Position numbers and translations under genes: made by a program. Positions 16,515 through 48,000 of a stretch of 64,000 nucleotides of DNA are shown here, piece after piece. This DNA comes from Raillietiella orientalis. Its lineage: Eukaryota. The stretch spans positions 3,844,001 to 3,908,000 of the forward strand of contig JAYWIR010000012.1 in the NCBI GenBank assembly GCA_036172245.1, in the 5' to 3' direction. The notes beneath the pieces are model-generated. The model searched no databases, had not been told where the DNA came from, and saw only the letters and a program-made list of their open reading frames with translations. Numbering within the stretch: the first letter of the stretch is position 1; each line of letters starts with the position of its first letter.

Positions 16515-16527
16515 TCACTTGCCATTA

Positions 16528-16602: not shown

Positions 16603-16699
16603 TGTTACATGACGAGCGTTTGGTGTTTTCATTTTACTTGATACCCCTCCCCCTCTTTCTCCTTCTCTGTACCTGGGGTCCTGAGAGCAGTCCCCAGAG

Positions 16700-18878: not shown

Positions 18879-19159
18879 AGTAGAGAGGCCGTCGATGGCG
18901 AGTTCTGTTTCCGAGGTATCTCCACCAACTTTGTTTGTGGCTTAAGGGTCAAGCGAAGGCCGGTTAACAAAGGGTGCACCCGAGTCTTCGTTGCTCTGGT
19001 GGACGGGTCTGCTCGTTGGCAGGCGGAGTTGCATCTGCCGGCAAGCAGGTCCGATTTCCATCGCTTCCGGAGGGCCCTCTGCTTGCTGCTGCTGCAGGAA
19101 CCGCGGATATCAGAGCGCGGTAGTTTCCGGTGGTGCTGCTGCTCCCCGATCCGAACGGA

Positions 19160-19372
19160 ATTTCAACTCGGTCACGCTGGTACAAAAACAAACCACAAGT
19201 TTGAGGGGAAGAAGAGCATCCCCTCAAAAAACAAGAAAAGCCAAAAAAAAAAAAAAAGTTCTTCCGGGATGATCACCGGCACGCAGATCGGCTTCTGGAA
19301 AGTAGGGAACGGAGGAATGGAACAATAAATAACGTAAAAAAGAGGGGAGGGGAGGGACAGGGATCTTTGGTT
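19160..19372 (-). mobile_element. Isolated 3' UTR fragment of a related retroelement subfamily
   Basis: Minus-strand aaaccaaagatccctgtccctcccctcccc matches aaaccaaagacccctgtccctaccttcccc at about 60760-60790. Weak terminal motif near 19160-19182. Confidence 0.55.
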
Positions 19373-19399
19373 TAAGACGTTCCTTTCCTGCTAGAATCG

Positions 19400-22188
19400 A
19401 CTCTGGATGGTGAGGATCTCCCTGACTACTTTTTCTGGCAGGTGAGACCACCTTGCTGCTGCCCTCATGAGGGCTGCTGCCACGCAGGCAGCCTCTCTTC
19501 GCCTCGAACCTGACTCTAACGCAAGGAGGGCTGTCACTATACTGCAGATACGTCAGGGGAGGAGACGCAGCGGCGGCTCGCGGAGCCTTTCTTGATTGGC
19601 GATATCATCGGCGCCATCCAAAGTCCCGGAAGAGAAAAGCGCCAGGGGAGGACGGTCTACCCACAGAGTGTTACCAGAGCTTTGCTGCAGAGCTCGCGCC
19701 TTTGGCTCAGAAGATGGAACTGCTGACTCGGGAAACAAGCGAGGTACCTGCCTCGTTCCGCTCAGCTAAAGTAAGGCTCCTCCTCAAGGGAGGAGACCTA
19801 CGCAACATCGGCAACTGGAGGCCAATTGCTGTTGTAAATACAGGTGCCAAGTTGCTGACGAACCTGTGGTCCAGGAGAATCGGACGGGTGGCCGAAACGT
19901 TCATAAGTCCTGAACAAACCTACTCTGTTCCCGGCCGATCAATGGAAGCCAACCTGTTCCTCGCGCTGACCTGGCTCGCGTTGCTACAGAGGGGTGACGC
20001 AACAGAACGGGGGAATCCCCGATTCCCCAAGAGCCAGAGACAGGGAAGCCCCTTGTCGTGGGATGCGTCGGGAGCCCTCAAGGTCGCGGTCGATCTGCTC
20101 AAAGCGTTCGGCTGTGTTGACCAGGTGCTCCTCCTGGAGCTTCTGGAACGCTTGGGATTCCCGGCCGTCATCCTGGCCTATCTGCGCTCCAGCTGGCGCT
20201 CCGCGTTGATAAATGTTTTTTTTTCAGCGGCCGGCATGTTTACGGCATTCCGGTGCCAGGCAACTCGAGACAGGGAGACAGCTGAGCCCCTTACTCTTCA
20301 GCACCTACTTCGAGTTGGTGCTGAAGGCGTACAGGGGTACTCTGGCTTCCCTGCCGACCTCATGTCCCAGTTCGCCAGCCTTGGCGGTCTATGAAGATGA
20401 CCTCTTGCTGCTGCTCTGCAGGTCCACCCCTACTGATGTACTAAAGTTCTTCGAGATCCTAAGCAGGGGAGCAGGCATGGAGGTGAACAGAGCAAAGTCA
20501 AGCGTGTGCCCGGTCGGCGCGACGTGGACTGGGCAGTCGGACTGGGTCCGTTTGGGGATCCACACGGTTCGGTACTTCAAGTAACTAGGCGTGCCGATAG
20601 GGCACATTTCCCCTACGGAAGCGCGCCCCGACTGCCTCCAGAAGGCAGAGTCGGTGCTCGGTTCGTTCCAAGGAGGCAGCTTCCTGTTGCCGGAGCGGGC
20701 CGTAACTTTGAACACTTTTGTTGCCCACATCCTCCAACCTCTGCTTTTTGTTTGCCTCTCCCTCCCCGATGTGGTGAAAAGGGCGATGGGCCTCCTTCGT
20801 AAGGCCCTCTGGGCAATCGGAAGTCCCGAGTCCGATTAAAAGACTTGTGCTCTCCTCGTCGCGACGGAGGCCTTGGACTCCTGAAGTTGGAGCGCATGGA
20901 ACTTCAACTGAACTTCAGAAGACGGTTCTTCGTAGCATATAACTGGGACACCTATTGGGGTGCCTCTGCACATTCGCTCTCCCGGCTGGCGGTCTGTGGC
21001 GAAGGACTCGCAACCCTGTTTGCGTGTCACCACCGCCGCCTCCCATCTTGCGTCTTCCCGCTGCTGTGTGTCGCTGTTCTGGTGAGAGCGAACACGTGAA
21101 TTTCATGCCGCCCCGCGAACACTCCGGCCTGGCGAGAGGAGAAAGTGGGGACCTGGGCCCAGCTCACTCGGGCCCCGCCGTAAGGTAGCCGCTGCCAAGA
21201 GTTTCAGAAGAACAGCGGAAGAACAGTGGAGGCGATGGGTAGTGAGCTGACTATGTTGGCCTGCTCACCAGCCAACCCCTTCGCCGCATCGGAGCTCTCT
21301 GCTGTCGGGGTACATGGCACCTGCCTAGTGGCGAAATGGGAGGTTTTCTGCGAGATCTCGGCCCGCAAGAAGCCGATCGGCGGCTGGACTCCGCGTCAGC
21401 TGGCTGACTCGTCAACACCAAGAACCGGCTTCTTGGAACTTGGAACGTTAGAGGGAACTCTTCTCCATCCAGCCTGAAGAGTTGGAAGTGCTCCTCCTGT
21501 TTATGGATAGAAAGCTGCTTCCTCTCAAGTGGCAGCAATAGGCGCTGATACTGCACTGGGGTCTCCGTGCAATGCGCGCCGGTACCACTGGCCAAAAATA
21601 AGCGCATCGCCGAACTGTGCCAGGTGTGGAGAGAAGGAAACTTTCCCTCACTTCATAGTGTAGTGCGTCTCCCTCCGGGACTTGTGGGCCCTCTGCGTCC
21701 CTTCCTCACCCCGTGGACAATCCCAGAGACTCTCTGAGGCCCCTCTTCTGAGAACTCTTTAGGGGCCGCAATCACAGCGCTGTACTGCGTGCGCGGTCTC
21801 GTCGCGGCCAACTGCGACGCCGAGAGAGATCGGAGCGAAGGGGGGGCTGCCCTGCACGCCATCCGCTCCTGCAGATAGCTTTGAGATGGTACCACCTGGA
21901 CAGGGAGAAGGAGGAGCTCGCCGGCATCCTTCAATGGATCCAGAGACCTCAACCACTACGAAATGTGATCCCTTCCCTTCTCCCCAATTAATTTTTGCTT
22001 TTTGTGTGCTGCTTGTTATAGTTTGTTTTCGGTTTCTCTTTTTGTTTCATTCCCCTTACCCTTCGTGGGCATGATGGACCTCTCCGGCCCTCCCCCCTTC
22101 TTTCTAGTGTACTAGTTGGAATCGGTGGGCCATCGGCTCCATCGATTCCTGCAAGAGAATAAACGCCCCGGCGCACCCGGGTGTGAAA
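19400..22188 (+). mobile_element. Tx1/L1-clade non-LTR retrotransposon, degenerate RT plus C-terminal region
   Basis: DGLPTECY, KGGDLRNIGNWRPIAVVN, ISPEQTYSVPGRS, VDLLKAFGCVD, LSPLLF, YEDD (YADD position), VNRAKS, YFK*LG, PRRDGGLG, zf-RVT-like end. Frameshifts and stops present. Confidence 0.9.
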
Positions 22189-22199
22189 TCACAGCACCC

Positions 22200-24290
22200 T
22201 TCTTCAGTCCGTCTCCGATGAAGAAGCGCCGTAGCAGGTTGGTGGCGGTGTCCTAGGGTTGACGGAGTTCAGAAGCGAGTCTCCGCCACAAGTCCTCAGG
22301 GTCACGGCAGTCCAACGAAAGGTGCGGGAGCGATTCCGTCGCTCCGCATCTGGAACGGTTCGGGGAGACAACTCCCCCGGAAACCAGGTGTCTGTGCTGA
22401 TTGCACTGGAATCATCAGTGCAGAAATAGCAAGACATCTTGTTTCCAGTGCAGCGGGAACATGGAGATGTTCACGCAGAGTGTTCTTCGGAGGACACACC
22501 AAGAAGCTCACTCCACCGAAGGAGTCCATTTTCCCGGAAACGAGGAATGACGGCGTTCACCAACGCGCTCGTCTTGCAGCGTTTTGCTGGGAGTTTCTCG
22601 ACTCCTACAATGTTGCAGGAGAACTCCTACCCTAGCCGATTGGCTGCTGTGATTTCTTGCCCTGAGGGCAGAGAGCTCTGCAACAAGGTGTGAGTGACGC
22701 TGGATGGACGATAGGCTTTGAGTGTTGCCCGAAGAACAGCTGTGGTACGAAGAGTCCCCTCGGCTGGAGCTGGGACGGCAGCGGTGCCATTTCGGATTCG
22801 TCTGTCGCAGAAGCCGAAGTCCTTCCAGGGACCACGAAGCCGGTTCCCTTCGGGACTTCCCCTCCAGTGGGGAAAACGGAGCATTACCATGGAGCTGGTT
22901 AGTACCCACCTCGGGGGGTGACTCTCAAGAGTGTCAGAAGCGCGCTGCTCCCTTCGGGAAGCGTCTCTCAGGAGTTCTCTTCAGAGGAGGAGGGAACAGG
23001 GAGCAATTCCTTTCCAGTTCCCTCCGGAGAGAATAAGGAAGTGGTTTTCTTGGGGATTCCCTCCTTGGCGTGAGACGAAAATCCTGCTTTCTCCGGAGCC
23101 TTCCTGGGTCCGTAGGGTGGTCCGTGGTTACCCCCTAACTTGAAGAGTTGCACGCAACCTTGGGTGGTGTGGCACAGTGTCAAAAAGCTACGTGAGCCCC
23201 CGTAAGGAAGTGGGCGGGTTTTCAGCACTCGGCAACCCCCCCTCCCCTACCCCCAAAAATGAAGGGTCTGAAAGGGAAGGGCATAGAGGAACCCGGAAGT
23301 GATCTCCGCGTGGACACGGGGGCACGCAGACGAGGAGAACGCGAAATGCAGACGGACCTGTCCTCCCCACGAGAAAAAGAGTTGAGTTACCGAGACAGCA
23401 GAGGAAAGGTTGCATGTGTGTCTATCCAAATGAGACCCGTCCTGAGCCCGCAGCCGTTCCGGGTCAAACCAATGGACCTGAAGCGGCTCCCTGGTCTCCC
23501 CTGGCACGCTCTCAGGGATGCGCGAAGCGCGCGTGGAAGGAGCGGAAGACCGAGCGATGAGCGCAAGGCTTCCCCATTTACACTGGATCCGCCTGGGGAT
23601 CCCCACGGGCAAATACTTCAAGTACCTTGGCGTTCCGTTGGGCGACTTCTGCTAGTCAGCAACGTGCTCAGCCTGCCTTCAAAAGGCAGAGATGACTCTC
23701 GGTCCGTTCCTCGATGGCAAGTTCGTCTTGCCGGAGCCGAAGTGTTCCATATGGAACACTTTTGTTGCCCCCATCCTCCACCCCTTATCCTTTGTTTTCC
23801 CGCTGCCTTATTCGATGAAGATCCGGGCGCAACGCCTCCTACGGAAAGTTTTGTGGGGCGCTGCAAGATCACGGATTCGCCTGAAAGACTTGGTGGCGCC
23901 GCGCCAGGACGCTGACTTGGACTCCTGACCATCGAGACGATCGGACGGCAGGTACAATTCCAACTTCACTCCCTGTGTATTCGATGCTGGTCTTCCCGTT
24001 GTTGTGCTCCGACGCGCCACACCCTTCAGAGATGCCTTGGTAACGCAGGACTTCTTTCGCTGTTGCTGCGCAACTTACGCCGGAGGACTGGATTCAGCTA
24101 CCCCCTGAGGCATCTGTCCTCGTTGCTGATAGCCCATCCGTGGATCTCCTGCCACCCGACAAACTGCCTAACAGCAGGAAGCTCTGAAGCTATGGACTGC
24201 CACTTTAGAAGTGCGCCCAGAGGAACTGCGACCGCTGAAGAGTATGCTACGCAAACCACTAGATCTCCTGCAGGATGGGACTCAATGGTC
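22200..24290 (+). mobile_element. Rearranged copy of the same family: zinc-knuckle ORF1 remnant, repeat-rich spacer, then RT end (KYLG onward)
   Basis: CFQC...AEC-like knuckle near 22440; spacer 22820-23230 shared with 26 kb and 62.5 kb; WIRLGIPTGKYFKYLGVPLG and NTFVAPILHPL...LKDLVAPRQD parallel 20550-20880. Confidence 0.75.
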
Positions 24291-24294
24291 CCGG

Positions 24295-24950
24295 CTAGCC
24301 GTCACCTTGCGGGGGGGACTCGAAACCCCGCGAACCAATGGACCTCCCCAACACACACACCTCGGCGTCGAGCCCCTTCCCTGGGCGGTATTCGAACCTG
24401 CGACGCTCGGAGACCGTGGCGACGCGACCGTTGACTCGAGAGTGTGCGCAAACCCGCATTCGCAGGGGGAGTGATCCGCACCGCGTCCGGGGGGGGGGGG
24501 GGGGGAATGCTTCCCTGCTTGACCCTTGAGGAAGCTGAGGGTCAACGTCCGGCGGTCTGGCTTGCCGAAGTGGGCGTGGCGGTACTTTGGGCGGAAAGTC
24601 GCACGGCGCGGGTCTGTCTGCTCTCCACGCCGCCTCCATGGAGGCAGAGCGAAGGAGACCGGCCGGCACGGACCCTCGGGCGCGCGTCCCAGCCGCGAGA
24701 GTATACAGCAGTCCACGCATGTTTGTCCGTGGACGAACGACGGCCGTTCCCCCTTTCCCCTCCATCCCCTCTGCGCTTGCTGACGTCACCGAACTGAGGA
24801 GCTGCACTTCTCCTTCTACGCCAGCCCGGGCTTTGCTGCTTTTCGGCGCTTCTCGCTCCGAAAGCCTCGTCTCCCGGTGGCACCGGGGAGTTTGTTCCAA
24901 CGGAGTAATCCAGCTGGGAGAGCGGTTCCCGACGGGGAGCAGAAAGAGGT
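24295..24950 (-). mobile_element. ORF1 (gag-like, degenerate double CCHC knuckle) fragment of the Tx1-like family
   Basis: CAHSRVNGRVATVS...GKGLDAEVC...RGFESPP; the RGFES ending recurs at about 25940 (+) and 62265 (+). Confidence 0.55.
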
Positions 24951-24999
24951 CCAAGTGGACGACGATCCACGCGCACTTCGACCGCTCCGAAAGTCCGGA

Positions 25000-27000
25000 G
25001 CGCGCAGGAGGGGACAGCGAATGAATGAGAGAAAGGGTTGGAGCGGGGACGGCGGGTGGCTCCTTTGGCCATGCCGTTCTTCTTCTTCCCTTCTAGAAGC
25101 GGCGCTGGATGCTGCCGACTCGACCTCCTCTTGCAGCAGAGGCCACCTGACCCCCGCGCCAGCCACACGCAGGCGGCTGCCTCGCGGGAGGCCTCCTTTC
25201 TCTGCGCCCGCCCCGTGTCCAGCGCGTGGGTCGGACCGCGATAGTGACGGTGGGCATCCGTTGCCCCATCGCCGCGAGGGAAGAATCGCTCCTGCAGGTT
25301 ACACGGGAGGCGTCCTCCCAGCGCGGCCGCCTTTCAGACCCGGTGCAGCCGGGGGATGCGGCACCCCAGGAAACGAGGCGCCGGCCCATTCCCCGGTTGC
25401 CCCGTAAACCTGCAGCTTGTTTCCGAGGGATGGAGGAGGGGAGAGACGCTGAGGTGCCCAGCGAACTCACAGAAGCGCCCCAGTCGCCACTCCCACCAGA
25501 TGGAAAGTGGCGGAGAATTCGTTCGTTCAGCCAGGGGCGGGGCTTCGGCCGCGACGACCTCTTTGATGTTTGCTGACTGCCCGGGAAGGGCTGGAGAGGG
25601 GTGCCTCCGGGTCCCGGCGCGGACCAAGGAGGGCCGCCCCCCGATTCCTTCCTTCACCGGAAGGGCGGAAGGGGGACGGAAGGTCCTCCTTCGCCCCCGC
25701 GTTACTGCCGCTCCCGTCCAGCGGACAGAAAGGCGTCCGCCAATGCGGTCAGCCATCGCCCTGAGGAACCGCAGAGGAATGGCGGCGATGCGCCCTCCAA
25801 AGACTTCGGGGCATGGGGGCGAAGAACGCCCTACCCCTCCCCGCATCTTCACCCCCCCGTGCGTGCGGATGAGAGAGGAAGAGTCGGCGTTGGCGGCCAC
25901 GTGGCTGCGGTCTATGAGCCACGTGGCTCCAAGCGTCGCGGGTTCGAATCCCCCCCGGAAGATGACGCCGGTTGACCTATGGGCTTCTTCAAGTGCGACG
26001 GCCCTCGTGGAATCCGGGAAACCACCGAATGCTCCCGCCCACTATCCGGGAATAGAAGATCGATCCTCCGGGTCCTTCCAGGGATCCAGATCACTTCGGG
26101 GATCCCCTCAGAGGAGGGAACAGAGAGCGGATCATTTCCAGATTCCCTCCTGAGGCAACCAGGGTGAGATCCAGGATCCCTTCGGGGTTCCCCTCCCAAG
26201 AGTAACAGGAACGGATAGCCCCTTCCCTCCCCCTTCCTCCCAACTTCAAGAGTTGTGCGCACACTCTGGTGGGCGGTGCTTAAAGAGCTTTGCAAGCCCC
26301 CGTAAGGAGGCGGACGGTTCCTCAGCATGATGTTGACTCTCCGAGGTGCCTCCAGGAACCAAGGAGACGCTTCCCTTCGGAATTCTCTCGCTACAGTTGG
26401 AAAAAGGGAGCCGTTACCATGGAGTTGGTTGATGCTCCCCTCGGGGGGCTGCTTCGCCAGAATGCAAGGAGCGCACTGTTTCCCTTCCGGGAGAGAACCC
26501 TTCATATAAATCGGGAAGCGTCCCTAAGGGATCCTCTTCAGAGGAGGAGGGTACAGGGTGTGGTTCTTTTCCGGGACCGCCCGCGCTGCCCTGCCCACGA
26601 GTCGTCTCTTTGCAACAGCGTCAGGGACAGAAAGGGGTAGGGGGAGCGATGGTCCGCTGGTGGCGCTGCCTCCAGTCGGGCGGCGGTCGCGGGTAAACGA
26701 TCCGTCAGTGAATCGAAGAGCACGCGAAACTCCCCCGAGGAAAGGGAGGGGTGAAGGAACAGGGAGAGGTTCTTTTCTAGGAGTTCCCTCCGGAGAGAAC
26801 AAGGAAGTGGTTGTCCCCTTCGGGATTCCCCCGCCTCCCCCCAGACACGAGAGGAACGGCCTGCTTCCCTCGAAGTCGTCATTGGGTGGTCCGCTCCGGG
26901 GTCACCCGCTACAACTTGAAGGAAGTTACATGTGCCCTCGAGCGGCGGGGATGGCGCTAAAAGGCCTCGTGGGACCTCTGGAGGCGAACGGGTTCCTGAG
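25000..27000 (+). mobile_element. ORF1 remnant followed by two tandem copies of the repeat-rich spacer
   Basis: PPIPSF...GHVAAV...RRGFESPP; 26060-26330 and 26345-26950 each align to 22820-23230. Confidence 0.6.
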
Positions 27001-27899
27001 GGAGGGCGTCCTCCTGGAAGGTCCAAAATCTGACCGCCGCGCGCGACGGAGGGCTTCCGCGCGGCAGGGAAGGTGCCGCGAAACGCAAGGGGAGCGCCTG
27101 AGCGGATGAAACGCTCCCGGGAGGAGAGAGAGAGGAAGCAGAAGGCAGGGAGGTCGCTGCCGCCGTCCTCGTTGTCCTCCACGATGAAGCGTCATCGCAG
27201 GGGAGGAAGCGCGGCGGCGGCCATCTTCCCTCCTTCCCTGCCTTCTCCTGGCGATCGGCGAAGCGTCCCGGGAGCCGAGACGTTCCCCGGAGTCGATCGA
27301 TCCCGCGAACGGAGGAGGAGGCGGCGACGAGCGGGAAGGAAGAAGGGAGCGCGCGCGCGCCTGATTGATTCCCGATCGAGAATCCGGGACACCGCAGCCC
27401 CTCCCCCTTCGGACCTCAAGCGGTGCGCCCGTCCTTGAAGGAGCGGCAGCTTGCGGCATTAGGCGGCGGGGACGGAAAGGGAGAGGAAGAAGAGGAGCGA
27501 TGGTCTGCCGGTGGCGTCCCCGCCAAGCGAGCGGCGGTCGCGCGAAACCAATCAGTCGACAAATTGAAAAGCGCCCGAAACCCCTCCGGGGACGGGAGGG
27601 GAAGGGAAGGGGTGCGCGCGCCGGGCTGCCGGGATGGATTCTCCCCTCCCCCCTTTCTCCCCGTCGCGGAGAGGGGCGACCGCACGCGGTGCCAGGAGGA
27701 ATTTTGGGGGAGGTGCCCTCTCTCCCCCGCACTCCAACGCCTCGGGGAGGCTTTGGAGGCGGCGGCTCCACTTCTCCGCCCGTCCCCCTCCCCCGTCGCG
27801 GGAACGTGTCCGTTCCCGTGGAGACAGCTCATACGTCCGTCTCCACGGAAACTGACACCTTCCTGCGACGGCCACTGTCTCATGGACCGGGTAGCAGAG

Positions 27900-30800
27900 C
27901 GAAGTCGAAAGAGTGCAGGATTTCTGCTGCCGCGCGGTTCTTTTCGTCGTCGTACAGCCCGTTGGCATTTCAACAGGCGATGCGCAGGCGGAGAGGAGTG
28001 AGGTTGCTCGTCATGGCAGAGAGCATGACGAGGATGGACCCGCCTTATTTTCTAGCGAGAAAGGCATGGTAATAGAGAGTCAAGCCAGATCGTCTATGGA
28101 CTCGTGCCTGTGCTCAGAGGAATGGCGCTCTCTGCTAAAAGAGGTTCCTCCCTTCCTCCTTCTTCTTCCCGTGGGAGCGAAAGGTTCTCATGGAAGGAGA
28201 TCATCGGGGCGTCCGGCACCGACCCCGGGCGAGGACGGACCAGAGGCGAAGCTCCACAGCCCCCTCCAGGACGCTCCCCCTGTTCCTCTCCTCCACCTCC
28301 TCGCGCGCGGGTTCCTACCCGGCGAGAATGCCTCGCGGGAGGTTCGGGGCCGCCTGCCCCGCCCCGCCCCGCCCTGCCGCCCGTCGCCCCTTCGCAACAG
28401 CGGCAGTCGGCGCCTTCCACTGCGGCGCGAGGCTTCCCCAGACGGGACGAGCTATTAATAGCACGCAGGCGGGACGAGGAAGGAGGGGGGGGGGGCAGGG
28501 CGTAATTTTCTTCTTTGCTCCCTCCCGCCATCCTTTTTTTGGCGGAAGAAGCGGACGTTTGCGGGCGCCGCCGCAGCAGCCGAGAGGAGCCATGGAGAGC
28601 CGGACGGCGGTGCTCGCTCGCTCGTACGATCCCGGGCGCACGCGAGCCCTCGGCTACGTCCCTACTCCTTTGCAGAGGGGAGGGGAGGGGGGAGGAAGTC
28701 CTTGAACAGATGGGGAGGAGCGGCAGCGGCGACAGCGACCTCCTGGTCTCTCTTGTGGGTCCGGAAGGGGGGAGAAGCGCCTGCCCAGCAGATGGCGCCG
28801 GTCGGCCTGCTGCGGTCGATCGATATCGGCAGGCAGCCAGCCGCGTCCGCGCGCCCCTAGGCGAGCGGAAGGCCTCCTTCCCTTTACCCACCCCACCCTA
28901 CCCTCGAGCGCGTCCTTCCCTCATCCCATGGCAAGTGCTCCTGGGTGCGGGAGGAGAGATCGAAGGAAGGAGGCAAAGGGATCGAGAATGACCTCTCTGA
29001 GGGAAGGTCACTCGAAAATGGGGCTGCCCTCTCTCCGGGACAGCAGCAGCAGCCTGCTGACCTCCACTCCCCTAGTCTGCACTGCACCCCAGTCGGGGCT
29101 ACCGGAGAGCCGCCTGACCGAACTCCCTCCCTCTCTTCCTCCTGTGAGCACGCCTCCCCCTCCCCCACCCCACTGACTGACCGCGCCCGGCAGCTCCCAG
29201 GCTACTTTCCCGAGCACCAGACTTTTTCCTTGGCTTCGCCTTCCTCCCGACACCCCTCGCGGAAGGCCAGCGGCAGCGGGTAGTGGTCGGGAAACGCAGC
29301 TCCTCCCCCCCTCCCCGTTCTCTTCGCCCGACACCCTCGGTCCGCGCAAGGGAAGCGTCGGGATGGGGAGGGATGCACGTTTCCTGGCCGCTTCCTGGGG
29401 GGAAAGGGGCGACCCCTGATTCCCTCGCACCTCGTAGGCCGCTGTGCCCTGAAGCTGCGACTCTCCAGAGTCACAGAAAGGAGTGGGTCACGAAGCGAGG
29501 GGACCGTCTTTCTCCTCGCCCGATCCTTTCCGGGAATGTCCCCCGTGCGCCCGCGATAGGGAGCCTCCCCCGCCCCTTTCCTAAGCACACAAAGACTTGG
29601 AGTCGCCCGCGGTTCGATCGGCCTCCTTCGGTTGACAGCGACGGACTGAAGACGAGGAGCAGAGGGACCTCCCCGAAGGGCGCACACGAAGAACCCCAGG
29701 GAGAGAAGAGGCGGGGGGGAGGAAGATGAAGCGCGCCAGCAAGTCGCATCTTCCGAGAGCAGTCGGAGGCGGGACGGCGGTTGTCGAGTGACGTCAGCGG
29801 ACGAAAGGGACGAGGCATCCGCGCGTCTCGCTACGATCGGCAGGGCAACGCGAAGCTGTCCTGCGCCCGCGCGAGCCGGGATCCCGCGAAGGGATCGATC
29901 CTCGCGGCAGCCGAGCGCGGCGGAGCCCTCCGCAGGAACCGGGAGACAGGGAGGAGGGGGGGGGGAGGAAAGAACGGCCGACCCCCGAGTCGAGCGACGC
30001 GCCCACCTCCCTTCTGAGGGCGCGTGCCCCCGGAGCGCGCGAAAGAGGGTAGAAGAGCACCCGGGAGAGCTGCGGCTCCGGAAGGTTCCGGTGCTGCGTG
30101 CGAGTCTCGCGTCCTCCCCGCCTCCGCCGTCCGGAAGCGCGCGCATGCGCATTCCAGGACACGCCCAGCGCTTTCCGTCCCGCTGGGGCCGCCAGGCTCC
30201 GCTCGGGCGACTTCCCGGAAGCAGCAGCGGCGGCGGCGAAGCGAGGCCACGGCCGTTCGCTCCCTCTCCCGGAAACTCGCCTCGAAAGGGAAGGGTAGGT
30301 GGAGGAATGGGGACGAGGGGAGGCGCGGCGCTATTGCCAAAGGGGTGAAGGCCGGAGGTCCCCGTGCGTGCGCGGAGCGAAAGGGAGTGGCTGAGAGAGG
30401 AACTAACCGAAATGAACCGATCCCATGGAGGGAGGGGGGGAGGAGGAGGAAGAGTGTAGGGAAGGAGGTTCTGTCTCAACCTCCCATAGGAGTGACCGCT
30501 TGGGCTCTTCAAAACACTTCAGTGGGAGACAAAAAAAAATCGAATCGACGACGATGGCGTTCGACCTCGAGCGGGGTCGCTAGGAGGCGCCCATTCGTTG
30601 GCGCCTCGGGTCTTCTTCCGCACCTGTAGCTCGCAACTCACGCGGTTGTGCCGGGGCGACACTCGTAGCTTGCAGAGCTTCCCCAGGTGTTTCCGACCTT
30701 CTCGAGGGCTCAAGGAAGGGGACAAAGGGAAGGAAGAGGACCGTCGCGATGCGTGACGGTCCTCTTCCTTCCCTTTCATGACCTTGGAAATTTGCAGGTC

Positions 30801-31200
30801 TTGGGTTGGGAGGTCACGATCAGCACCGAGATTCGTCTAAGGAACAGGGGAGCTCCGGGCATGGGGTGCAAGACCAGTCGCCTGACTGGAGATTGAGGCT
30901 GGTCCCGGGAGAAACGCCAGACGACCTCACCACGACTAACCATCCACTCTTTTAAAAACGCTCCCGAGGAAAACCTTTGACCGTGGCCCACCCGGTCTAC
31001 GGGGCGACCGCTTCGACGCGCTCGAATAAGGGAAGAGACGGGGATGGAAAAGCAACCGAGCACCCGGCGTGGGTTCTCCTGTATAATGGCTGCCACACAA
31101 CCCTGCAGGTTTCTTGGATCACAGCACGGAAACGAAACTGCAAACCCACACGAACTTCAACCCGTGGGGGAAAATGGCACGGGAACCAAGATGCCACTAT
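27900..31200 (-). mobile_element. Highly decayed, very GC-rich Tx1-like element of a second family (ORF1, RT, C-terminal finger remnants)
   Basis: ORF1-like GEVV...RRLVL...LIVTSQPKTCKF at 30780-31000; LTSLDNRRPAS (NWRPIS position) near 29780; HRLLKC finger remnant near 27980. Confidence 0.5.
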
Positions 31201-31276
31201 AAGGGCCTCCGAAATAAGGACATTTTATTTACACGATTTTCTTAAGACCCCACAGCAAAACAGACGCTGCAAACGG

Positions 31277-32283
31277 TTACTCCTGCGCAACTTCCTGCGA
31301 ATGTCCACTTGCTGCGCTCAGCAGAACTTGCGCGGCTTGTGCGGATCCCCCTGGAGAAGTCACCTGGATCAGCTGCGGTTGCGAGGCTGTCTGAATGATG
31401 ATGGGCTGACCTCCTGTGCCCATGACCTGAGTTCGTATCATCTGTAACTGAGATTGATTCAAAGGGATTTGCTGCACTTCACCGTTAGAAGTCACAATCT
31501 GTTGTAAAATTTGCACTGGACTACTCTGGTTGGACAAGGACGCTTGGGGAAGGGTAATTATTTGGGCCTGTCCTTGATTGGGTGTTGCAGCAGAAGTGGA
31601 CAACACCTGCTGACCTTGACTGACTGGGATAACTTGCACAGAGGTTCCCACAGCTTGACTAGACTGTGCTTGTTCTGCAGTGGCAGCAGATGAAGATGGC
31701 AAAATCACACTAATCACTTGACCATTAGGCTGCAACAGTTGGATGGGAATGCCAGTATGGGTAACTGTAGCCTGACTTAGGCTATCAGAAATGATAGTCC
31801 CTGCACGAATGGTTTCTTCACGTGGTTTGGGCGCCTTCAGTTCTTCGCGAGGAACAATGTCAATTAGGAAATCGAACTGATCATATTTGCTGATTGCCAT
31901 AGCAATATCATTGCGCTGCAACGTGCGCCTTTTATTGTCTTCGGTATGTATCCAAGCCCTTAAAGTGAGTTCAGTAACAAATACTTCAGCTGCTTTAGCA
32001 AAAAGCACGGGAGCTTCTGCACTAATCATTTTCACTTCCTCATCCAATTTCATGATTTTTTTAATGCGCGCCAAAGGAAGTTCTTGGGTTTTCAAGTCAT
32101 TCTAAAAGACAGGATGAAAAGGCATGTGTGTGCACACACACTTACGGCGGCCATGCAACGGATTTCGTCCATCACCTTGGGCCAAAAAGAGTTTAAAGAC
32201 TGCTGTGCCTCAGTCTGATGCCCAGAAGTTGGAGCTGCAGCAGCTGTAAAAATATCACTCGTACTTACAGTGACTGCAGACAT
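31277..32283 (-). CDS. NF-YC: Nuclear transcription factor Y subunit gamma (histone fold plus Q-rich tail)
   Basis: Exons 32283-32146 and 32101-31277 (44-nt GT-AG intron); ELPLARIKKIMKLDEEVKMISAEAPVLFAKAAE...RRTLQRNDIAMAISKYDQFDFLIDIVPRE. AATAAA on the minus strand near 31225. Confidence 0.97.
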
Positions 32284-32359
32284 AGCAAATACTTTAATTT
32301 AAGGTTTCTGCACAAAAACAAAAGCAGAATCAAATCAGCAAATTCATTCAAATATATTG

Positions 32360-37700
<5,341 letters not shown>

Positions 37701-39699
37701 AAGGTGTATGATCTGATAGCACAATGGTTTCAACGATATTCCTACACTAATCAACTGCCATCATTTATACATTTACATACAAAACATTTGCTGCAGATAA
37801 AACATATCCCCTATTCTAGCAAGGTAAACGTGGCATACAAAATGCATGAAAGCAATAACAGTTAACAGAAATGATAAAGCAATCACACACAATACCATGA
37901 AATAGAATATCAAATTGGTGGATGTCGGTCCCACTCCATCACAATTTGCAATCCGATATGTTTACCCCAGGATTACGAGAAGTGAAAGTTATTTCTCAAC
38001 TTTTGAATAGGTTCATCTTGATATTGAGATTCATAGGAATTACTGTTTACTTCTTTCTTTACAAATACGAATGACGGATGGATAAAATACAATTGCCATA
38101 AACTTTACTCTAGTTTTCCGATAGCTTCAATTACCAAACTGAAAAACTGACAATAATCTCCACTGCTATAGCAATATACGTGGGGTAAGCTGCAGTGATT
38201 GACAATAATTACTTCAACAGGAGAAAATCCACTGACCTTAACATGAGGAGCACCTCAAAACCTTGTCATTATAGAAAAAGTCAAGTTTCAAACATACCGA
38301 CGAAATGTACTACGTAGCATTCTTATTGAATATAATTGAAATAATCGATAATCACATTTCAAAAAACACACTGCCACCAATTAAAAGGCCCATGAAATGA
38401 ATGGATTACAATCTACACCACTCTTAGAAACGCACCTTCTCCCACAAACGCGCTCCATGACGAGCACTTTGGAATTCAACGTGCTCCACACAAAGTTACT
38501 TTGACGTCAGTTTGCATTAATGACTTAATTAGGTGGTTTTCCTGTGATTCCGTCTTTTTCTCTATTTCCGATAAATTTATAAACTCACTTTCATTAAGCT
38601 GTGCAAGAATAACAAATAGCATCTTTACTGGACAAACATTTAGGATTTGGTAACAACTCCTTCCCGCCCGTGCCTCATTAGAGCATCGACAGTCTTCGAA
38701 ATTTACCATTAAAAACATTAGGAGCTCTGATTTATAGGAAAGTACTTTTGCGTATGAGCGAGTGTACATCCTTCCAGGACATGGTTTTATTAAATAACTC
38801 AAGGATAAGTTAGTAACTGATGGTTCTCGACATTGAGTGGTTATATCTCAGTTCGCGAGTTATCAAGATCCAGAGATTCCAAAGAAATCATCCCCATATA
38901 AAAAAATACATGCCGAATAAACACAATTTTTTTTTTGCCATCCAGTTGTAAGGATCGGACCAGCTGCCATCAAAAGTATGATCATAAACTATTCTTCAAT
39001 GATTGCTTCATTATTTTATCCGAAATGTGAACATTCAAAAAGATCCGAATGAATACAGATAGGAAAAAATTGGATATGAAAGATGTCAGATTATCATACT
39101 CCTTATATCCAGCGAGCGTACTTTAAGCACTTTACCTAGATCTTGCATTTCCAGAGCTAAAATTTCATAAATATTTAAATCATAGGTTGAAACATTTTCC
39201 AGTTTACTTTCGAAACCTGTACAGTGCTGTATTTGAATGTTTTGCTTCTTTTTTTTTTTTTTTATAGGAAACTCAAAAGAGCGATGAGAAGCTCCAGATT
39301 AATGACTACCCAAAAAAAATACTTTTGCACTTGATACCAAATGAACTGTTTATCTGAAGAAAGATTAAACCCTTCTTCAGATAGGAAATTCACTCCTTTG
39401 GTTGACTACACGTGTTATACCACTACATTACCTCTTTCCTGGGCACCTTCATCGCTATAAGAGTATCCATAATTTCAAATGCAACCATGAATCATTATTG
39501 GTTATTTAATCCTCAAAACCAGTTCATAATCAACTTTTCACATCAATTAAGATTCCAAATGAGCATGACTTCTACTTGCTTATTCCTTGAAAAACTTTTC
39601 TTATTCCTTCTACTTCCTTCTTCCTTTCAAATCCTTTCCAAAACCAAAGGTGAAATCTTCGGAGTAATTCACAAGAGAATTTCAAAAAGCAACATTTTT

Positions 39700-41100
39700 T
39701 CCTTCAGTATGAAATGGGTTTGAAATCCGTAAAACCAGTTGGAAAACAATGCAATTTCTTTGCTCAGAAGAGACTGAAGTCTCATCACGTAAACTTGTGT
39801 TTTTATGGCTGCTGTGCTCTTGGGTGATACGAGTCCTTAGGTTACATTATGGTTACTTATCCATTAATCATGCTATTATTAAAGTTAATGATATTTGCAA
39901 CTATCATGGACGTGATCCCATTACACATTAGCAAGAAATTTAAACAACACTCAATGAAAACTTCTGAGGATGAAATGCAATTAAGGAAATTCAAATTGAG
40001 AAAGAGCAGAGCCAAATAAGAAAAATGATATCAATGGTGTGCTGCATTTACTTATTAATGTTTGATTGACGACTTTATTTCCAAAGAAAGAGTTTCGTAT
40101 TTTCAACTTCAGTTGTTTTTCTTAGGTAAGTTTAACACTGAAGCGAACATATTTTCGAAATTGATTCCTTGTTTTTATTGTACTGCCATTATAGCTTTCC
40201 TGATTTTCAAAACAGCTAAGGCTTTCAGTTCTTATTCAAATAAATGTATTGGGTGAATTTTTCTTCAGAATCTGATGCAGTCCAAGGGCTATCTCCATGC
40301 TGAAAGTTGTGAATGGCGGAGTGTGCATCAACTCGAGAGGCACGTTTCGAGTTGATCACGGAGGAATTGTTTTTCCTATGTATCATAACAAGGAGCATCC
40401 CAAATATTTCCCATTCTTTGAGCACATGTCTGAACAGTCCTGTATCTAGGCAGGAGCAAACCACAAACGCTACATGTTTTTGGATGTGGGCAACCGATGA
40501 ATATTGAAAACTTTAGAAAAAAGGATGTAATGGAATTCTGAATGTCCTAAGCCTTTTGACAATGTCTTGCCAGTTTTTGAAAAAAACTGAAATCGCTCAC
40601 AGAAAAATTCGAGAAAATGAATAAAAAAATGATAAACCTTCATCGTATTTAGAGTGTTCATGTCGTCCATAAACACGCCAAACAGTTGGTAATTGTAAAC
40701 AATCCATTTGGGCTTAAGAATGCCGCGATTCACACAATGCCGTGATGACAATGGAAATAAAGGTGCGTGAAAGGAAGCTTTTTGTTCATCAGATGGTACG
40801 CTGTTGCACAATCCATCGGCTGAATTATGCATCCCAAGGATTCCTGCATTTGGAACGTCCCGTTCGGGAACTGCGGTCGTGCGGTTCGGAAATTTTTGGA
40901 AAACCTGGTGCAGAAGTGGTTCGAATTGTACGTGTCGGTGCACAGCTCGATAACCTTCAAGGGTTGGACGGAGCGGAAGGAGACCGAAATCTGCGATGCT
41001 CTGCATCGGAGAGAGATTGCCTTTGCACAACTTGTAAACACTCCCGTGTCCCGGGCCGCGGATGGTGTCACTTTCGCTTGTTTGTGTTCTGGTGAACGGG
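39700..41100 (+). mobile_element. Old Ty3/gypsy-like pol relic (RT), many stops and frameshifts
   Basis: INTPN...NPFGLKNAA near 40700 (MPFGLKNA motif), upstream YMFLDVG, downstream RKFLENLVQKWFEL...SITFKGW in the order expected for LTR-type RT. Confidence 0.45.
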
Positions 41101-41556
41101 AGAGTGGGGGAGTTTCGTTTTGTCCCTCTTCCAATGGCTGCGTGTGCCCGCAGCGAAGCGGCCGCCCCTCGCTGCGCCGCGGAGGTGTGGGGAGATCTTG
41201 GAGGTGCTCGGGTGGTGGTGTCTCAGGGGAAGGAGCGGTGGTGGTGTAGCGTGCACGTGTCCAGGAAGCCATTCTTTTATGAAATTATGATTTCCCACGT
41301 ATCCCGGTTTTCATGTGTGTTGATTTTGATATGTCCTGTTGTTGTTGTGCGGCCAGAGTTCCAAAAATGTGCTCTCCTGCTGATTTTTATTGTGTTTCTT
41401 ATTCCAGAGTGTGATTGTATTAATGCATTTGTGCGTTCGTTCCGTGAATTCATCAACGTTTGATATACTTTAAATTAAGAGCATTTGGATTATAGAAGAA
41501 CTGTAAGGGCCTGCTGAAAGAACTTTCAAGTTTCATTTTATGAAGTTGTAGGAACC

Positions 41557-42400
41557 ATGGTAAGTCACCAGTTTTGAAATAAGGTTTCTTCGTTCGCTGA
41601 CAGTAATTTCCAAATTACTTAACGTATTCATGAAAATCACTACATGCAACCTGGTTGGAAACTAGCACTTTTGAAAACTCGATCGCCTGTGAACATTCAG
41701 TCATGTCACCATGCCATGTTAGTGGGATGCATTACATGTTTTTAATTCTGTTGCTCCAACCGCTGCAAAATACAAATACGCTCATGCCGATATTGTTATT
41801 TTACTTCGAAAATAAGTTTTTTTTTTCCCCCTTACTTTATTCAAAATATCTGTGATACGATCTAGTTTAAAATTTGCACCTTTGCCCAATCGGCTTTAAC
41901 CTGAAAGTTCACATTTCACAACTGTTTGTGTCTTCCATTTTTATTGTCAAGTGGCATGCACAGTTGATCAGATAACTTGTTTTTTGAAATTGCATTTTTA
42001 GGCAGCTGAGGTTGAAGAAACTTTGAAAAGAATCCAGAGCCACAAAGGAGTTTTAGGGATTATTGTGATTAATTCAGAAGGTTTGTTTACCCCTCCCCAA
42101 AAAATAAAGAACTTTCTGAAAGAAATAAAGCCAATGTGTAGGAATTCCCATAAAATCAACATTGGATAACACAACAACCGTGCATTATGCAGGATTAATT
42201 AGTCAACTGACAGACAAAGCTCGTCATGTAGTTCGTGATTTGGATCCAAGCAATGATCTTACTTTTCTTCGGGTAAGATCCAAAAAGCATGAGATTATGA
42301 TAGCCCCAGGTATATTACATGGATTATTTATATTTATGGGTAATACTTTACTTCAGATAAGGAATACATCTTGATTGTGGTTCAAAATCCCAATGATTAA
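41557..42400 (+). CDS. robl: Dynein light chain roadblock-type
   Basis: ATG|GTAAGT at 41557-41559; exons 42002-42080 ([26 protein letters not shown]), 42142-42309 (GIPIKSTLD...[27 protein letters not shown]), 42357-42400 ([14 protein letters not shown]). Confidence 0.96.
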
Positions 42401-42504
42401 CTAGTCAAAATATAAAAATTTATTTTTTTTATGTGGAATGTAATCACTGAATATATAAAAATCAGCTGGGCAGCATCCTGCTATAGCTGGTGAGTCTCTT
42501 GCAA

Positions 42505-45087
42505 TCACTGCTGTTTGCTTTGTAATAAATTGGATAGTTGGTTGTTGATCACATTGAATGGATGTTGCAGTTTTAGCTGGTACTGATGAGCCTGATGACA
42601 TGGCTGACTTAAAATTCTTTTTTCCAATTCTTGTTCTACACTGAAGTGTGAAACAACTCTTTAATGATGCATACACACCTAATGAATACTGGCGATAAGA
42701 CTCTATCAGTGCGCTGATTTCCGACCAGGTAATAGGTTCTTCAAGACAAGGCTTACTGTTAAAAGACTGCTGGGCTATATAAGCACATGCCACATTCCAT
42801 GCATCCAGACAGGGTAACACTCCTTTTCGTCTCAGTGCTTCATGCATAACACCTTGCCATATGTGTTCTCTTTCTGAATGCAAAATCATAGGTTACTTCC
42901 ATCATTGTGGACTACTTACCTTGTTGTTGCAGCAGAGATGTTGGTTCTAGAGCCAGATGATGCAGAAAGTCGACTTTTTCTAAATAGGAGGGCGAGTTCT
43001 TGAGCAAATAAGAATTGCTTTCTTCAGACAAAGGCAATTCAGTTTTCACGTTCTCATCCGGAGGCGAAAGTTGTTTATAGTTTACTGCATTACTGTCTGG
43101 ATTTGCCTGTGACAAGAAAGCACCAATGAAAATGTGGAGCAAATAATAACAACATCTTACTGGCTGAGGATTGGCACAAACATTATTTTTAGGACAGGAA
43201 TTCTGCTGCAAAGCTGCATTTGGCCGTGTTTCATATAAAGAGTGGGTTGTCTTAGATCCATCACGTAGTTCCTGCAATGAGGACAGCGCCTGCCTGACGC
43301 AGTAGTCCTGGTACCCGTTCCCCCCATCAATGAAAACCCAGAGCCATGTGATCAGGCTTTTATTGAGTTGTGCCAAACCAGAGCAAAAGTCAGGTACTCA
43401 CTTGGGAGTACTGCTCAAGCACAGTATCACAGGTATGGGCTGTCCTGCTGTTTGTTTCACCTTCGTTGGTACAGTCTGGATGTAATTCCTCCTTGCACTG
43501 AATAACTTTGTCAACTGTAGTATCCACAATAGCACTGACAGAATTGTGATGGCTGACAGTTTGGACAGTTTCCTTGTGCTCTGGACTAGTCTTGTGACCC
43601 AACTCATGTGGGCGAAATAATCCTGTAACCTTGCTGCTTGCTGGCGCTTGAAGTGTTCGGGCTACAGCATTTTATGGTTTTTCATTTTTATTTCCGTTAA
43701 CCTACTTGGAGACTCCGAAATTCGTCCTATGGGACTTCTGTCCCGTTCTAATTTGGGGCCATCGTTTGCTTTTGGATTGCGATCACGTTCCTTTTCCCTA
43801 GGCCTATCTTTTTCCCTCTCCATTTCTCTCAAACGCTGTTGTTCTGCTTCTAACCTTATTCTAAGGAGCATCACAATGCAAGCAAACGAAATTTGTGCTT
43901 ATACATACCTATCATGCAACAAACTAGAATTAGTAGCATTCATAAACAAAGGATTAACAAGTAATTCAGGTGGAACATATGGGGATACTGATGGTATGCC
44001 AAAACTAAACAGTTGTGGTGGACGCAGCATACCCAGACGTTCAAGATACAACTGTTCCTCCAAACGAAGACCAGGAGGGGTTAAATGAGCTGCTAGATAA
44101 GCTGACTGATAGGCTGAATAAGCTGCAGGATCCATGCTTGCTAAATGTGCATGAAGAGCAGCGGCTGCAGCCGTGGTATTCGTATCATTACGATATGGCT
44201 GAAATCCTCTTAGACCAAGAAAAATATCTGGTCTATTAGGCTCAGTTGAATAAAAACCAGCTGCTGCAGATGAGCCTGAATCTGCAAACTATCACTGAGA
44301 TCAAACAATAGTAAACATAACCTACAATCCACAGGAAGGGACAAATGAGATCGAAGATAATTCTCAGCATGAGAATAGGAAGTCGCTGCTAAATTTGGAT
44401 TTCTGGCCAAAGACTCGAAAAGAGTGTTAGGTCGCAGTAAAGTACTACTCTCGGTAGTTGAAGAAACTGTTTGCCTGTTTTCTGAAATCAAGTTTCCAAA
44501 ATTCTACTTAACAATAGTTATGAATTCTAAAGTAAATGTCTTACATATGCACTGTCTTTAGGAAGTGCAAAAGACTGAGTTGGAGCAATTGTAACCACAG
44601 GTGGATTTGACTGAGTGCTTGTTAACAATGATGGTAACACTGATTTAGCAGCTCGATTTGAGGCATGACTCATGTGAGGAGGTAGTGCAGATGATGGAGA
44701 GTCCAAGCATTTTTCTTTTGAGAAATGAGCAAAAAATGCTGCATTTCTTTAAAAAAAAAAAAAAATTTTTTTTTTTTTCTTTACCTTGAGTTGGTTCTCC
44801 TGCTTGTTTTGCAAGGTTTCTTAATGCAGCGGCAAAACTAGAAGTACAACCAGAAACAACTCTGCTATTAAGCAACTCTGAATGATGAGTATGTAGATTA
44901 GGAGGAAGACCCGCAGCAGATGTAAAATGAGGACCGACTAGTGATCGAAGAGAACTATTCAGACTAGATGATGAGGTCATAAGACTAATGGGAGAAGGGG
45001 TGGCTTGTGGCAAAGGTGGCACAGTAACAGTAGTTCGGCTGATTTTCCCAGGAAGAGAATGACTCATTCCTACAACAGTTTTATTAC
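42505..45087 (-). CDS. GSE1: Genetic suppressor element 1-like coiled-coil protein, multi-exon; upstream exons may lie beyond 45.1 kb
   Basis: GMSHS...RTTVTVPPL, SSFAAALRNLAKQA, GFQPYR, RLEEQLYLER, RE-rich segment, C-terminal WSEISALIESYRQY|EQELEKRIL. Last exon 42635-42505. Confidence 0.8.
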
Positions 45088-48000
45088 CTGAAAAATAATT
45101 TTGGTAATGCAAATACATGTACTATTTATCAGATGGAAAATGAAAATTGATTCAATTCTTACAGCATCAAAAATTACTTGATTTTCTCTCTCTCTCTCTC
45201 TCTCTCTCTTCTTCTTCTCCTTCTCCTTCGATTACAATGAGTTTAAGCTTGTCACTTTGCAAACGGTTTCGAAAACGCAAATTCGTTTTGCTCGGAGCAT
45301 TCCGATGTTTAGAAATGCAACACAACAACAGCACACACACAAAAAAGGATCCCAATTAACAGACGCACAGAGCGTTTTCATGAAACCGAGTACTATGCAT
45401 CCAAACTACGATGCATTCATGCTGTTTTTAACCCCACGTCCATTACGTTTTCGAAAAGTTAACTGCAAAGGCAGCAGCACACTACACTTTGCAAAAGCAG
45501 CATATAGCAGGGACAGGGAGGGAAAGAAAAAAAAAAAAAATAAACACACACACGCCATTCTGAAATTAAGACTCACCAATGCGCGCCTGATCACAACATT
45601 CTACAAACAGTTGCACGTTTACAGTTACCGAAATTAGACAATTTGGGGGAGGGGAGGGGAAAAAAAGGTCGTCACTAACCAGTAAACGTTAGCAGGCTAT
45701 CTTGTGATGATGTCTGAAACAAGTTCTGTACGGAAGTACCAGGAACGTTTGGATGGCGGAAGTCCATTTTTAATCAAAAGTTTCAAAAGCTGTTCTTGGC
45801 AATATTACAACAACTCCTCAACATCGTTCACGCAAGCAAAACAAAACAAAACAAAACAAAAAAAAAGGCAGTACAAAAAAAAAAAAAAAAAAATACACAC
45901 ACAAATAAGCAAGCAAACACCGCAATATTACATGTGATCACAAATGAAGTCTTATAAAAGAGTACAGTACATCAAATGTTGAGGGGAAGCATCGTACCAA
46001 GCGGCTAACCGCTGCACACCTAGTACTGCACAGCCGCCGGATTTTAAGAATCGATCGATCATCGGGATTGCAGGGCCGGGATTTCGTCTGATGCGGGTTC
46101 ATCGGAGCCCCCCTCCCTCCCTCCCTCCCTACCCCTCCTCCTCCCCCCCCCCCACATTAAGGGAATTACAAACACGTTTTCGGCCTCTCTGCTCACTCGC
46201 AAAATCAATCGAGGAAGGGCTGCCGAGTTTTGTCAATAACCGTTCCAAATAAACTGCGGAGAAATCTCGACCGGGCGGCGCGGGCGCGATGAAACAGAAA
46301 TCGCGAGTGCGAAAAGGAAAAACTCTGCACACACAAAAGCCAAGTTCGAAGCCTCCTCCTCCTCCTCCTCTCTTTCTGCCAGCCGCTGTTGCGCCATCCC
46401 GAGCAAAATATTCCTTTTTTGAAGAAGCTTTCGAAGGTGGTGGTGGTGGTGGTGGTGTTCCGCACATGCTTTCAAGCCTTTCCCCCCCCCCCCCCACGGC
46501 GCAGCAGCAACTTCTTCCATCCTCAAACACGCCGCAAGGCGCAACTATTACTTACATCATCATCATCATTGTTACTACCACCACTATTATTTTTCGTTTC
46601 TGGTTTTAGTGAAAGTGCACACATTTCGTGAAGCGCGATGCACACCTTGGATTTTTTTTTTTCTTTTTTTTTTAGATTCGGTGCACCGTACCACACACAC
46701 GAGCAGCCGTGGACCTCCATCTGGATTTCGTGATACGATGCTGCGAAATAGCTGTTCTGGCCAGAACGTGGAGGGAGGGAATTCAGCATGGCCGTGCGAG
46801 CTTCATCCAATCTTTCTAAGCGTCAATGAGGAGAGACACACAACAGTGCGCCGTCATTAATGGACCATGGACCAGAGAGAACCGCTCGGTCACGGTATCA
46901 TCAAAAACACCTGACCCCCCCCCGCCCCCCCCCTCCCTCCAAAAAAAAGGTAATCGCCTGCAATCAGTAACGGCGGGCGGGAAGAGCATTTTTGCAACGG
47001 CAATAACAATGAAGTCACACCATCATCATCCCGGGAAGGCAGATAGATAACACGTAGGCGAGGTGCGTAAAAATACGCCCAAACTGCCAAGAAGAAAGCA
47101 GCTGTGCAACTGGAATGAAGAATTGTTTTCGCCATCGCCGCGCGGTGGTGAGGCAGAGACGGGGAGCTCCGACGCCAAAGGTTGAAGGCAGACGAGATCG
47201 GTCCAGGGGACGCAGGAACCGAGCGGCGCACGCGGTCCTCGCGAACGAGGGATGCGATGCCGCGCAACGGTCGGGATGCGATTCCTTTTGTTCCTGATGC
47301 TGCGGGCGCGACCGGCTCCCCACAACGCGACCCCGGAAATCCTTCACGCGATCCACGCGGGAGGACGCTCGGGAAGCGCGGAGAGAACACCACATGCCCT
47401 GGCCGGATCGGGAAGAGGCGGTCGCCTCCGCTCGCCCGTCTATCCCGCCGTTTCGGCTTCGCCGCCACCGAGACGAAATGTGACCCACGCGAGCACTTAA
47501 AAATTCCACTTCCTAAAGCATTTTGTTCCTCTCTCCTCAGCTGTCTGCCTCATCATAAATTACCTCGACGATCGTGTCAATTACTGCGTACAGGGTAAGG
47601 CGAAGAAGCCTCCTTCGAAACAAATAACGTTTAGTCTGAAAATACTTTCGCATGAAAAATGCATATGCATCACTCTGCTTGCCATTTGCATCTCAACACG
47701 CAGTGAATCTTGAAATTAGCAACTTCGAAACACACACACGCACACGGAGCGTCCGAACCGATTCGGATCCACCTACTACCTACCGTCTTTCCTTTTTCGC
47801 AAATAATAATGATAATAACTGTAAAATCAGCATGGTATGAAAAATCAACACAATGAAATCAAACAACGTACAAACGCAATCCGTTCTCGCACCCTGGTAC
47901 GGAAATTTCCATAACGCTTCGATTCCTTTTTGCTTTACGTCTCCCGGAGACTGAAATGAGCCTTCGTCCAACACGGGAAGTTCCCAGGGAGAGAGCAGCC

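Follow-up and report, generated by a model that had tools for sequence, protein, structure and literature searches.

TGS1 and NF-YC genes 86 nt apart: a probable two-gene operon with a candidate trans-splice acceptor

Operons that are resolved by spliced leaders are known from nematodes, tunicates, flatworms, chaetognaths and Hydra. Several designs have been described, as follows. In the SL2-type operons of C. elegans and Trichinella, the median distance from poly(A) site to acceptor is 124-129 nt, and a Ur motif, TAYYTT, lies about 50 nt before the trans-splice site (PMC7668243). Leader-resolved operons with short or zero spacers are described for Oikopleura dioica, Ciona intestinalis and the SL1-type of C. 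elegans, and the Oikopleura reference operons were delimited by a cut-off of 60 bp (PMC7986045, PMC12582326). Parasitic flatworm operons mostly have two genes, less than 300 bp apart (PMC12582326). The flatworm leader ends in AUG, and more than 40 Schistosoma cDNAs need the leader AUG (PMC9851317). Among crustaceans, leader trans-splicing is described for calanoid copepods and amphipods (PMC4664967, PMC7986045), and copepod leader genes occur in tandem arrays or beside 5S rDNA (PMC4664967). As far as a 2021 methods paper goes, operons are unreported in copepods or amphipods (PMC7986045). The literature that we searched, which comprised main texts and few subscription journals, contained no report of leader-resolved operons in arthropods, pentastomids and branchiurans included.

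The window, that is, the whole 64-kb stretch of DNA that was analysed, contains intact TGS1 and NF-YC genes. Both lie on the minus strand, and the earlier note on this DNA correctly placed them on one strand and the NF-YC ATG at 32283-32281. The features of the pair are as follows.

38436..38458, minus strand: TGS1 coding exon 1 (predicted), with ATG at 38458 and a phase-2 donor at 38435
37621-37492, 37142-36941, 36899-36638 and 36557-36492, minus strand: TGS1 exons 2-5, an open joined frame
33532-33513 and 33476-33443, minus strand: two probable TGS1 micro-exons in intron 5, with donors at 33512 and 33442
32370..33394, minus strand: TGS1 exons 6-10, encoding the cap methyltransferase domain, with the stop TGA at 32372-32370
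32343..32366, minus strand: variant poly(A)-signal hexamers of TGS1, AATATA at 32366 and 32358 and AATGAA at 32348
32308..32330, minus strand: U-rich tract and 3' splice site (AG 32309-32308), the proposed trans-splice acceptor
32284..32307, minus strand: NF-YC 5' UTR of 24 nt, with an in-frame TAA at 32301-32299
32283-32146 and 32101-31277, minus strand: NF-YC, two exons, 320 aa, Pfam PF00808/PF00125

The ten-exon TGS1 model runs from 38458 to 32370 and encodes 491 aa with no internal stop; its cap methyltransferase domain matches Pfam PF09445 with an E value of 3.9e-27. The Trp-rich N-terminal motif encoded by exons 2-5 agrees with that of TGS1 homologues. Exon 1 is needed because this conserved motif would otherwise be without a start codon. 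Among the upstream ATGs tested, that at 38458 is the only one opening a frame through exons 2-10, and the assignment of exon 1 is predicted from this open joined frame. The candidate micro-exons, of 20 and 34 nt, would add 18 codons in frame and free of stops, with introns of 36 and 48 nt. The best named matches of NF-YC and TGS1 are mostly arthropod, at 45-65% identity; those of NF-YC are arthropod NF-Y gamma proteins. An AATAAA is found 48 nt past the NF-YC stop.

The interval between the genes had been given as 76 nt, counted from a TGS1 stop at TAA 32362-32360. That TAA does not lie in the TGS1 frame, which closes at TGA 32372-32370; the gap therefore measures 86 nt (32369-32284), with 62 nt from stop to acceptor. 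Homologue alignments stop three residues before this TGA. The TGA is preceded by a run of six Gs, and with five Gs the TAA at 32362-32360 would become the stop. The U-rich tract followed by AG 32309-32308, 24 nt before the NF-YC ATG, was described correctly, and the acceptor is strong. That is, it scores 0.88 on a simple pyrimidine-tract score on which the ten acceptors used in TGS1 and NF-YC reach 0.31-0.91, and 4 of the remaining 406 AGs across 7.2 kb match it, which amounts to about 0.05 per 86 nt. At a loose threshold, an acceptor ahead of an ATG is unremarkable, being found in 16 of 30 lead genes and 28 of 54 intron windows. The 86-nt gap has no splice donor and no match to the nematode Ur motif TAYYTT (PMC7668243), its RNA folding is not above that of its shuffles (z -1.1), and it contains an extra ATG at 32347. 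A look-alike of the TGS1-NF-YC stretch was not found in the other genomes searched.

The 3' end of TGS1 also falls within the gap. The earlier statement that a poly(A) signal is absent stands for AATAAA and fails for the variant hexamers at 32366, 32358 and 32348, which lie 4, 12 and 22 nt past the stop and are candidate poly(A) signals. The same kinds of hexamer are found at +9 to +13 past the DYNLRB and EB1 stops. An ATTAAA at 32298 is downstream of AG 32309-32308. Very short 3' UTRs occur in this genome, with AATAAA at most 35 nt past the stop in 7 of 15 genes.

Two stretches bear marks of a promoter, as follows.

38250..39300, minus strand: CpG-undepleted patch at the TGS1 start (CpG obs/exp 0.8-1.0), the likely promoter of the unit
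33561..33598, minus strand: candidate internal promoter in TGS1 intron 5, with TATA at 33598-33591 and an initiator-like A at 33567

In the AT-rich island around the pair, gene bodies are CpG-depleted and 5' ends are not. The median CpG obs/exp is 0.38 in the TGS1 body and 0.21 at the gap. Near 38505, the 5' patch of TGS1 contains a palindrome that we take to be CRE-like. The value of such patches as promoter marks was gauged in a sample of 18 LSM loci and 26 proteasome matches, in which starts were set by eye for 26 genes; four genes were added to give 30 lead genes, and six loci without a fixable start were excluded. Gene names below family level in this sample are presumptive, by eye. Over the 600 nt before the start, CpG obs/exp is 0.56-1.17 in 28 of the 30 lead genes. 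For the two low genes (0.22 and 0.41), the true first exon proved to lie further upstream, and with the starts moved they gave 1.00 and 0.71. This correction came once the result was known and brings all 30 within 0.56-1.17. The corresponding values for four genes that lie tightly downstream of another gene are 0.22-0.35 (4/4), with NF-YC at 0.35. The contrast between lead and tight downstream genes has P 1.5e-4 before the start correction and 2.2e-5 after it, and is partly built in, because the DNA ahead of a tight gene is the body of another gene. The first 140 codons of NF-YC are little depleted in CpG (6 seen, 8.5 expected).

Three further tight pairs were found in this genome. In the WASHC5 pair, 46 nt separate stop and acceptor and another 5 nt lead to the ATG. 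Two more are in loci that had been picked for other reasons:

L119:7058-10000 (G000:C50, about 1071058-1074000), plus strand: EB1, then proteasome beta-2, whose acceptor lies 143 nt past the EB1 stop
L127:1964-3335 (G000:C15, about 2622960-2624340), plus strand: CSDE1 followed by TSPO, AATAAA 120 nt before the acceptor

Pfam scans covered 139 and 78 candidate frames around LSM and proteasome loci, a selection in which pairs may be missed. All four tight pairs, TGS1-NF-YC included, have an acceptor ahead of the second gene, with scores of 0.73-0.88. The spacings are mixed: 46, 62 and 143 nt from stop to acceptor and, in the case of CSDE1-TSPO, 120 nt from signal to acceptor. The CSDE1-TSPO interval is without a CpG patch. 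The word TGAAT stands ahead of 3/4 of the tight-pair acceptors vs 2/10 internal acceptors; these counts are too small, and we therefore do not claim it as a signal.

The first exon of the proteasome beta-2 gene lies directly behind the AG and opens at residue 2 of the solved orthologues, and 149 residues follow without Met and without an in-frame ATG. Since the gene has no ATG of its own, splicing at its acceptor is obligatory. Among 28 upstream cis donors listed for this locus, not one adds Met alone: the best contributes 13 residues from the EB1 5' region, and the weak donors of the gap contribute between 3 and 6. By analogy with flatworms (PMC9851317), the start codon would come most neatly from an AUG-ending leader. 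An ordinary alternative to a leader AUG is found at PSMA1, where an ATG-only exon lies 2.9 kb upstream in cis.

It is against this background that we propose that TGS1 and NF-YC probably form a two-gene operon that is resolved by spliced-leader trans-splicing. The proposal is based on two intact genes 86 nt apart, the strong acceptor between them, the lack of a CpG patch adjoining NF-YC, and the three similar pairs. A distance of 86 nt is inside the operon spacing thresholds of about 250-300 bp in use elsewhere (PMC12460157, PMC12582326). A dicistronic precursor split by leader trans-splicing had been one of two suggestions in the earlier note; it has become the best-supported reading, and one drawn from the DNA alone.

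The proposed course of events is as follows. RNA polymerase II would start near 38480, and perhaps also at 33567, and would transcribe through both genes. The TGS1 message would be cleaved and polyadenylated about 20-45 nt past its stop at a variant signal, or be cut by splicing itself. A separate small RNA would donate a capped spliced leader to be joined at AG 32308, so that NF-YC has a capped message to itself, and the U-rich tract may double as the downstream element of 3' processing and as the pyrimidine tract of the acceptor. It is more speculative that the leader would end in AUG, which would account for downstream genes without a start codon. On NF-YC, such a leader would open a three-codon frame only, closing 15 nt before the real start.

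A gene for the leader RNA was sought in several ways. The Rfam scan of the 64-kb window gave no leader-RNA match, and a search with the Rfam SL1 family gave none in this genome or in the control genomes. Two leader-RNA patterns run genome-wide stayed at chance level (9 vs 12 in the control, and 14 vs 17). Scans of 12 U1, 12 5S, 8 U2 and 8 U5 loci and of 15 larger stretches returned known RNAs only. Because LINEs here adjoin copies of U1, U2, U4 and U5, their 3' flanks were listed (100 of 105 matches); these contain U1, U4 and U5 pieces, a leader RNA was not found in them, and the repeated head that recurs there belongs to the following LINE copy, of which it forms the 5' end. The negative result is weak evidence, since the part read was under 1 Mb of 210 Mb and leader RNAs differ widely in their Sm sites (PMC4664967). 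As a separate observation, LINE copies of one family stand in tandem with a common end hairpin, which is followed either by a 5'-cut U1, U4 or U5 or by a head that resembles a degenerate snRNA. The first ~30 bases are missing from many U2 copies.

The earlier note had seen no room for a promoter of NF-YC. This is true of the gap, and yet 1.3 kb further upstream TGS1 itself contains the candidate promoter of intron 5. It provides the first alternative to the operon, rather unlikely in our judgement: transcription of NF-YC would start at 33567 behind the TATA at 33598, and a short non-coding first exon would be cis-spliced from donor 33512 or 33442 to 32308, with the last five TGS1 exons then sitting in the first intron of NF-YC. 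The TATA and the initiator-like site have a textbook spacing of 31 nt, form the sole such pair in the TGS1 body and recur in 3-9% of 150 Markov-simulated sequences. The window 33650-33050 has a CpG obs/exp of 0.78, the highest in TGS1 and within the range of lead-gene promoters, and a comparable CpG window or loose TATA-initiator pair was seen in 1 of 10 other gene bodies. However, this splice would need to pass over five or six acceptors in use, together with the TGS1 3' end, in a genome whose introns are only 41-80 nt. The two donors, moreover, fit the TGS1 micro-exons better, and the site at 33598 may therefore serve a short TGS1 form, be an NF-YC promoter, or be due to chance. A promoter at this site could equally make the short form and still feed the operon, and it would leave the other tight pairs unexplained. 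A short TGS1 form from 33598-33443 could comprise the catalytic half only.

Unlikely, too, is the absence of any splicing at 32308, with the acceptor a product of chance and NF-YC translated from a bicistronic message or from a transcript begun at a weak promoter within the gap or the last exon of TGS1. In its favour, NF-YC has an AATAAA and TGS1 has none; in Drosophila, Tgs1 comes from a bicistronic mRNA (PMC7605716); and an acceptor of this strength is expected by chance in ~5% of 86-nt stretches. This explanation meets its difficulty in the tight pairs, where the acceptor recurs in four of four and where proteasome beta-2 would be untranslatable without splicing. The low CpG of the gap and the extra ATG at 32347 also argue against it.

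The second suggestion of the earlier note was that NF-YC is spliced from a distant 5' exon ending in an AAG/GTGCGT donor near 38435. The donor exists, but it is TGS1's own first coding donor and follows the ATG at 38458. Joined to the NF-YC acceptor, it would yield a 21-codon frame, in a strong start context, that overlaps the NF-YC ATG in another phase. In its general form, with the whole of TGS1 inside the NF-YC first intron and either this donor or the unused donor at 38588 joined to 32308, we consider a shared first exon quite improbable. It would agree with the single clear promoter patch for both genes, and donor 38588 would leave just a four-codon upstream frame. Nesting of a gene in another's first intron occurs in animals, e.g., in the cholinergic locus. 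On the other hand, nine or more exons would be skipped, and nesting is unlikely to create many such pairs in one genome. Finally, a protein fusing TGS1 to NF-YC, whether through splicing or read-through, is barely conceivable: although TGS1 exons 3, 7 and 8 have phase-1 donors with which a weak AG at 32293-32292 shares its frame, that AG scores just 0.26, such a product would cut the methyltransferase domain, and the in-frame TAA at 32301-32299 bars fusion through the strong acceptor for all nine of the nine donors tested.

We take the animal for a crustacean, probably a tongue worm. The COX1 of the assembly has pentastomids as its top three matches, at 72-73%, with insects at 68-71%. In a tree of 17 rows it joins the pentastomids with support of 100/100, a placement that is provisional because the other 13 rows are insects only and the query branch is long. 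COX1 and COX2 are separated by what looks, by eye, like a Leu(UUR)-tRNA, and COX1-Leu(UUR)-COX2 is the pancrustacean order (PMC10355681). The nematode setting proposed earlier is not borne out, given that the nearest named relatives are arthropods, that COX1 groups with pentastomids and that the Ur motif is absent. In a mitochondrial-type contig (L002:1741-2330, G000:C282), a Leu-tRNA-like stretch is duplicated and ~500 extra bases lie between COX1 and COX2; more than 50 further COX1 pieces are in nuclear contigs.

The surroundings of the pair are sharply divided. Positions 31300-46000 form the AT-rich, CpG-depleted island of housekeeping genes with introns of 41-80 nt, and 16000-31300 a GC-rich, CpG-undepleted and gene-poor domain, with a sharp border at the NF-YC stop. 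A Roadblock/LC7 dynein light chain gene (41558-42400, plus strand) stands tail to tail, with little or no spacer, against a gene at ~45070-42400 on the minus strand that is without a Pfam match and that we take to be GSE1-like. Exons for RhoGEF and PH domains at 14758-16525, plus strand, lie where the window is GC-rich and presumably belong to a Trio/Kalirin-like gene. Upstream of TGS1, the minus strand of 38500-40500 has broken reading frames, possibly of a decayed mobile element. Positions 38500-41000 gave no Pfam match, and a third upstream gene is therefore not claimed.

We regard it as possible, though doubtful, that many operons of this genome are resolved by a leader ending in AUG that supplies some of the start codons, as at proteasome beta-2. 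If so, the system would be the first of its kind in arthropods in the literature searched and a case of convergence with parasitic flatworms, with TGS1-NF-YC as one member. The value of the pair lies in this genome-wide pattern. The earlier note had linked the arrangement to the cap chemistry of TGS1, and a causal link from a role of TGS1 in capping leader RNAs to its place in the pair was considered; it is unsupported and we reject it, the other tight pairs combining unrelated housekeeping genes. If they had arisen independently once more in an endoparasitic arthropod, one could test directly why compact parasite genomes repeatedly come to have operons and leader splicing. Operons would also alter the annotation of such genomes, in which fused gene models and genes without an ATG would be expected.

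How, then, does the TGS1-NF-YC pair compare with the systems described at the outset? With the SL2-type operons of C. elegans and Trichinella it shares a U-rich spacer and an acceptor like those of trans-splicing, and the CSDE1-TSPO pair has a similar spacing (about 100 nt). It differs in the distance from poly(A) site to acceptor, at most ~40 nt here, in the absent Ur motif, and in that an SL1 gene was not detected. An operon of the C. elegans SL2-type is rejected because the Ur motif is absent and the spacer, at 62 nt from stop to acceptor, is too short. Calanoid copepods and amphipods resemble the present animal in being crustaceans, and a leader RNA is known there. The moi-Tgs1 locus of Drosophila likewise pairs an arthropod Tgs1 with an unrelated gene, both proteins coming from one mRNA with Tgs1 as the second frame (PMC7605716); here, in contrast, TGS1 is first, the partner is NF-YC, and a strong acceptor precedes the partner. 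The likeness to flatworms is in the two-gene unit with its genes under 300 bp apart, and in that proteasome beta-2 seems to require an ATG from outside, whereas NF-YC has its own ATG and the AUG-ending leader is inferred. The short-spacer operons of Oikopleura and Ciona and those of the SL1-type have the same plan as this pair, namely, unrelated housekeeping genes head to tail, an acceptor directly before the second gene, and a spacing of tens of bases. The differences are in the lineage, Pancrustacea, in the mixed spacings, and in the nature of the evidence, which for the operon here is genomic DNA. By analogy with these systems, the TGS1-NF-YC pair probably functions in the manner of the short-spacer operons that tunicates and flatworms possess (PMC7986045, PMC12582326, PMC12460157).
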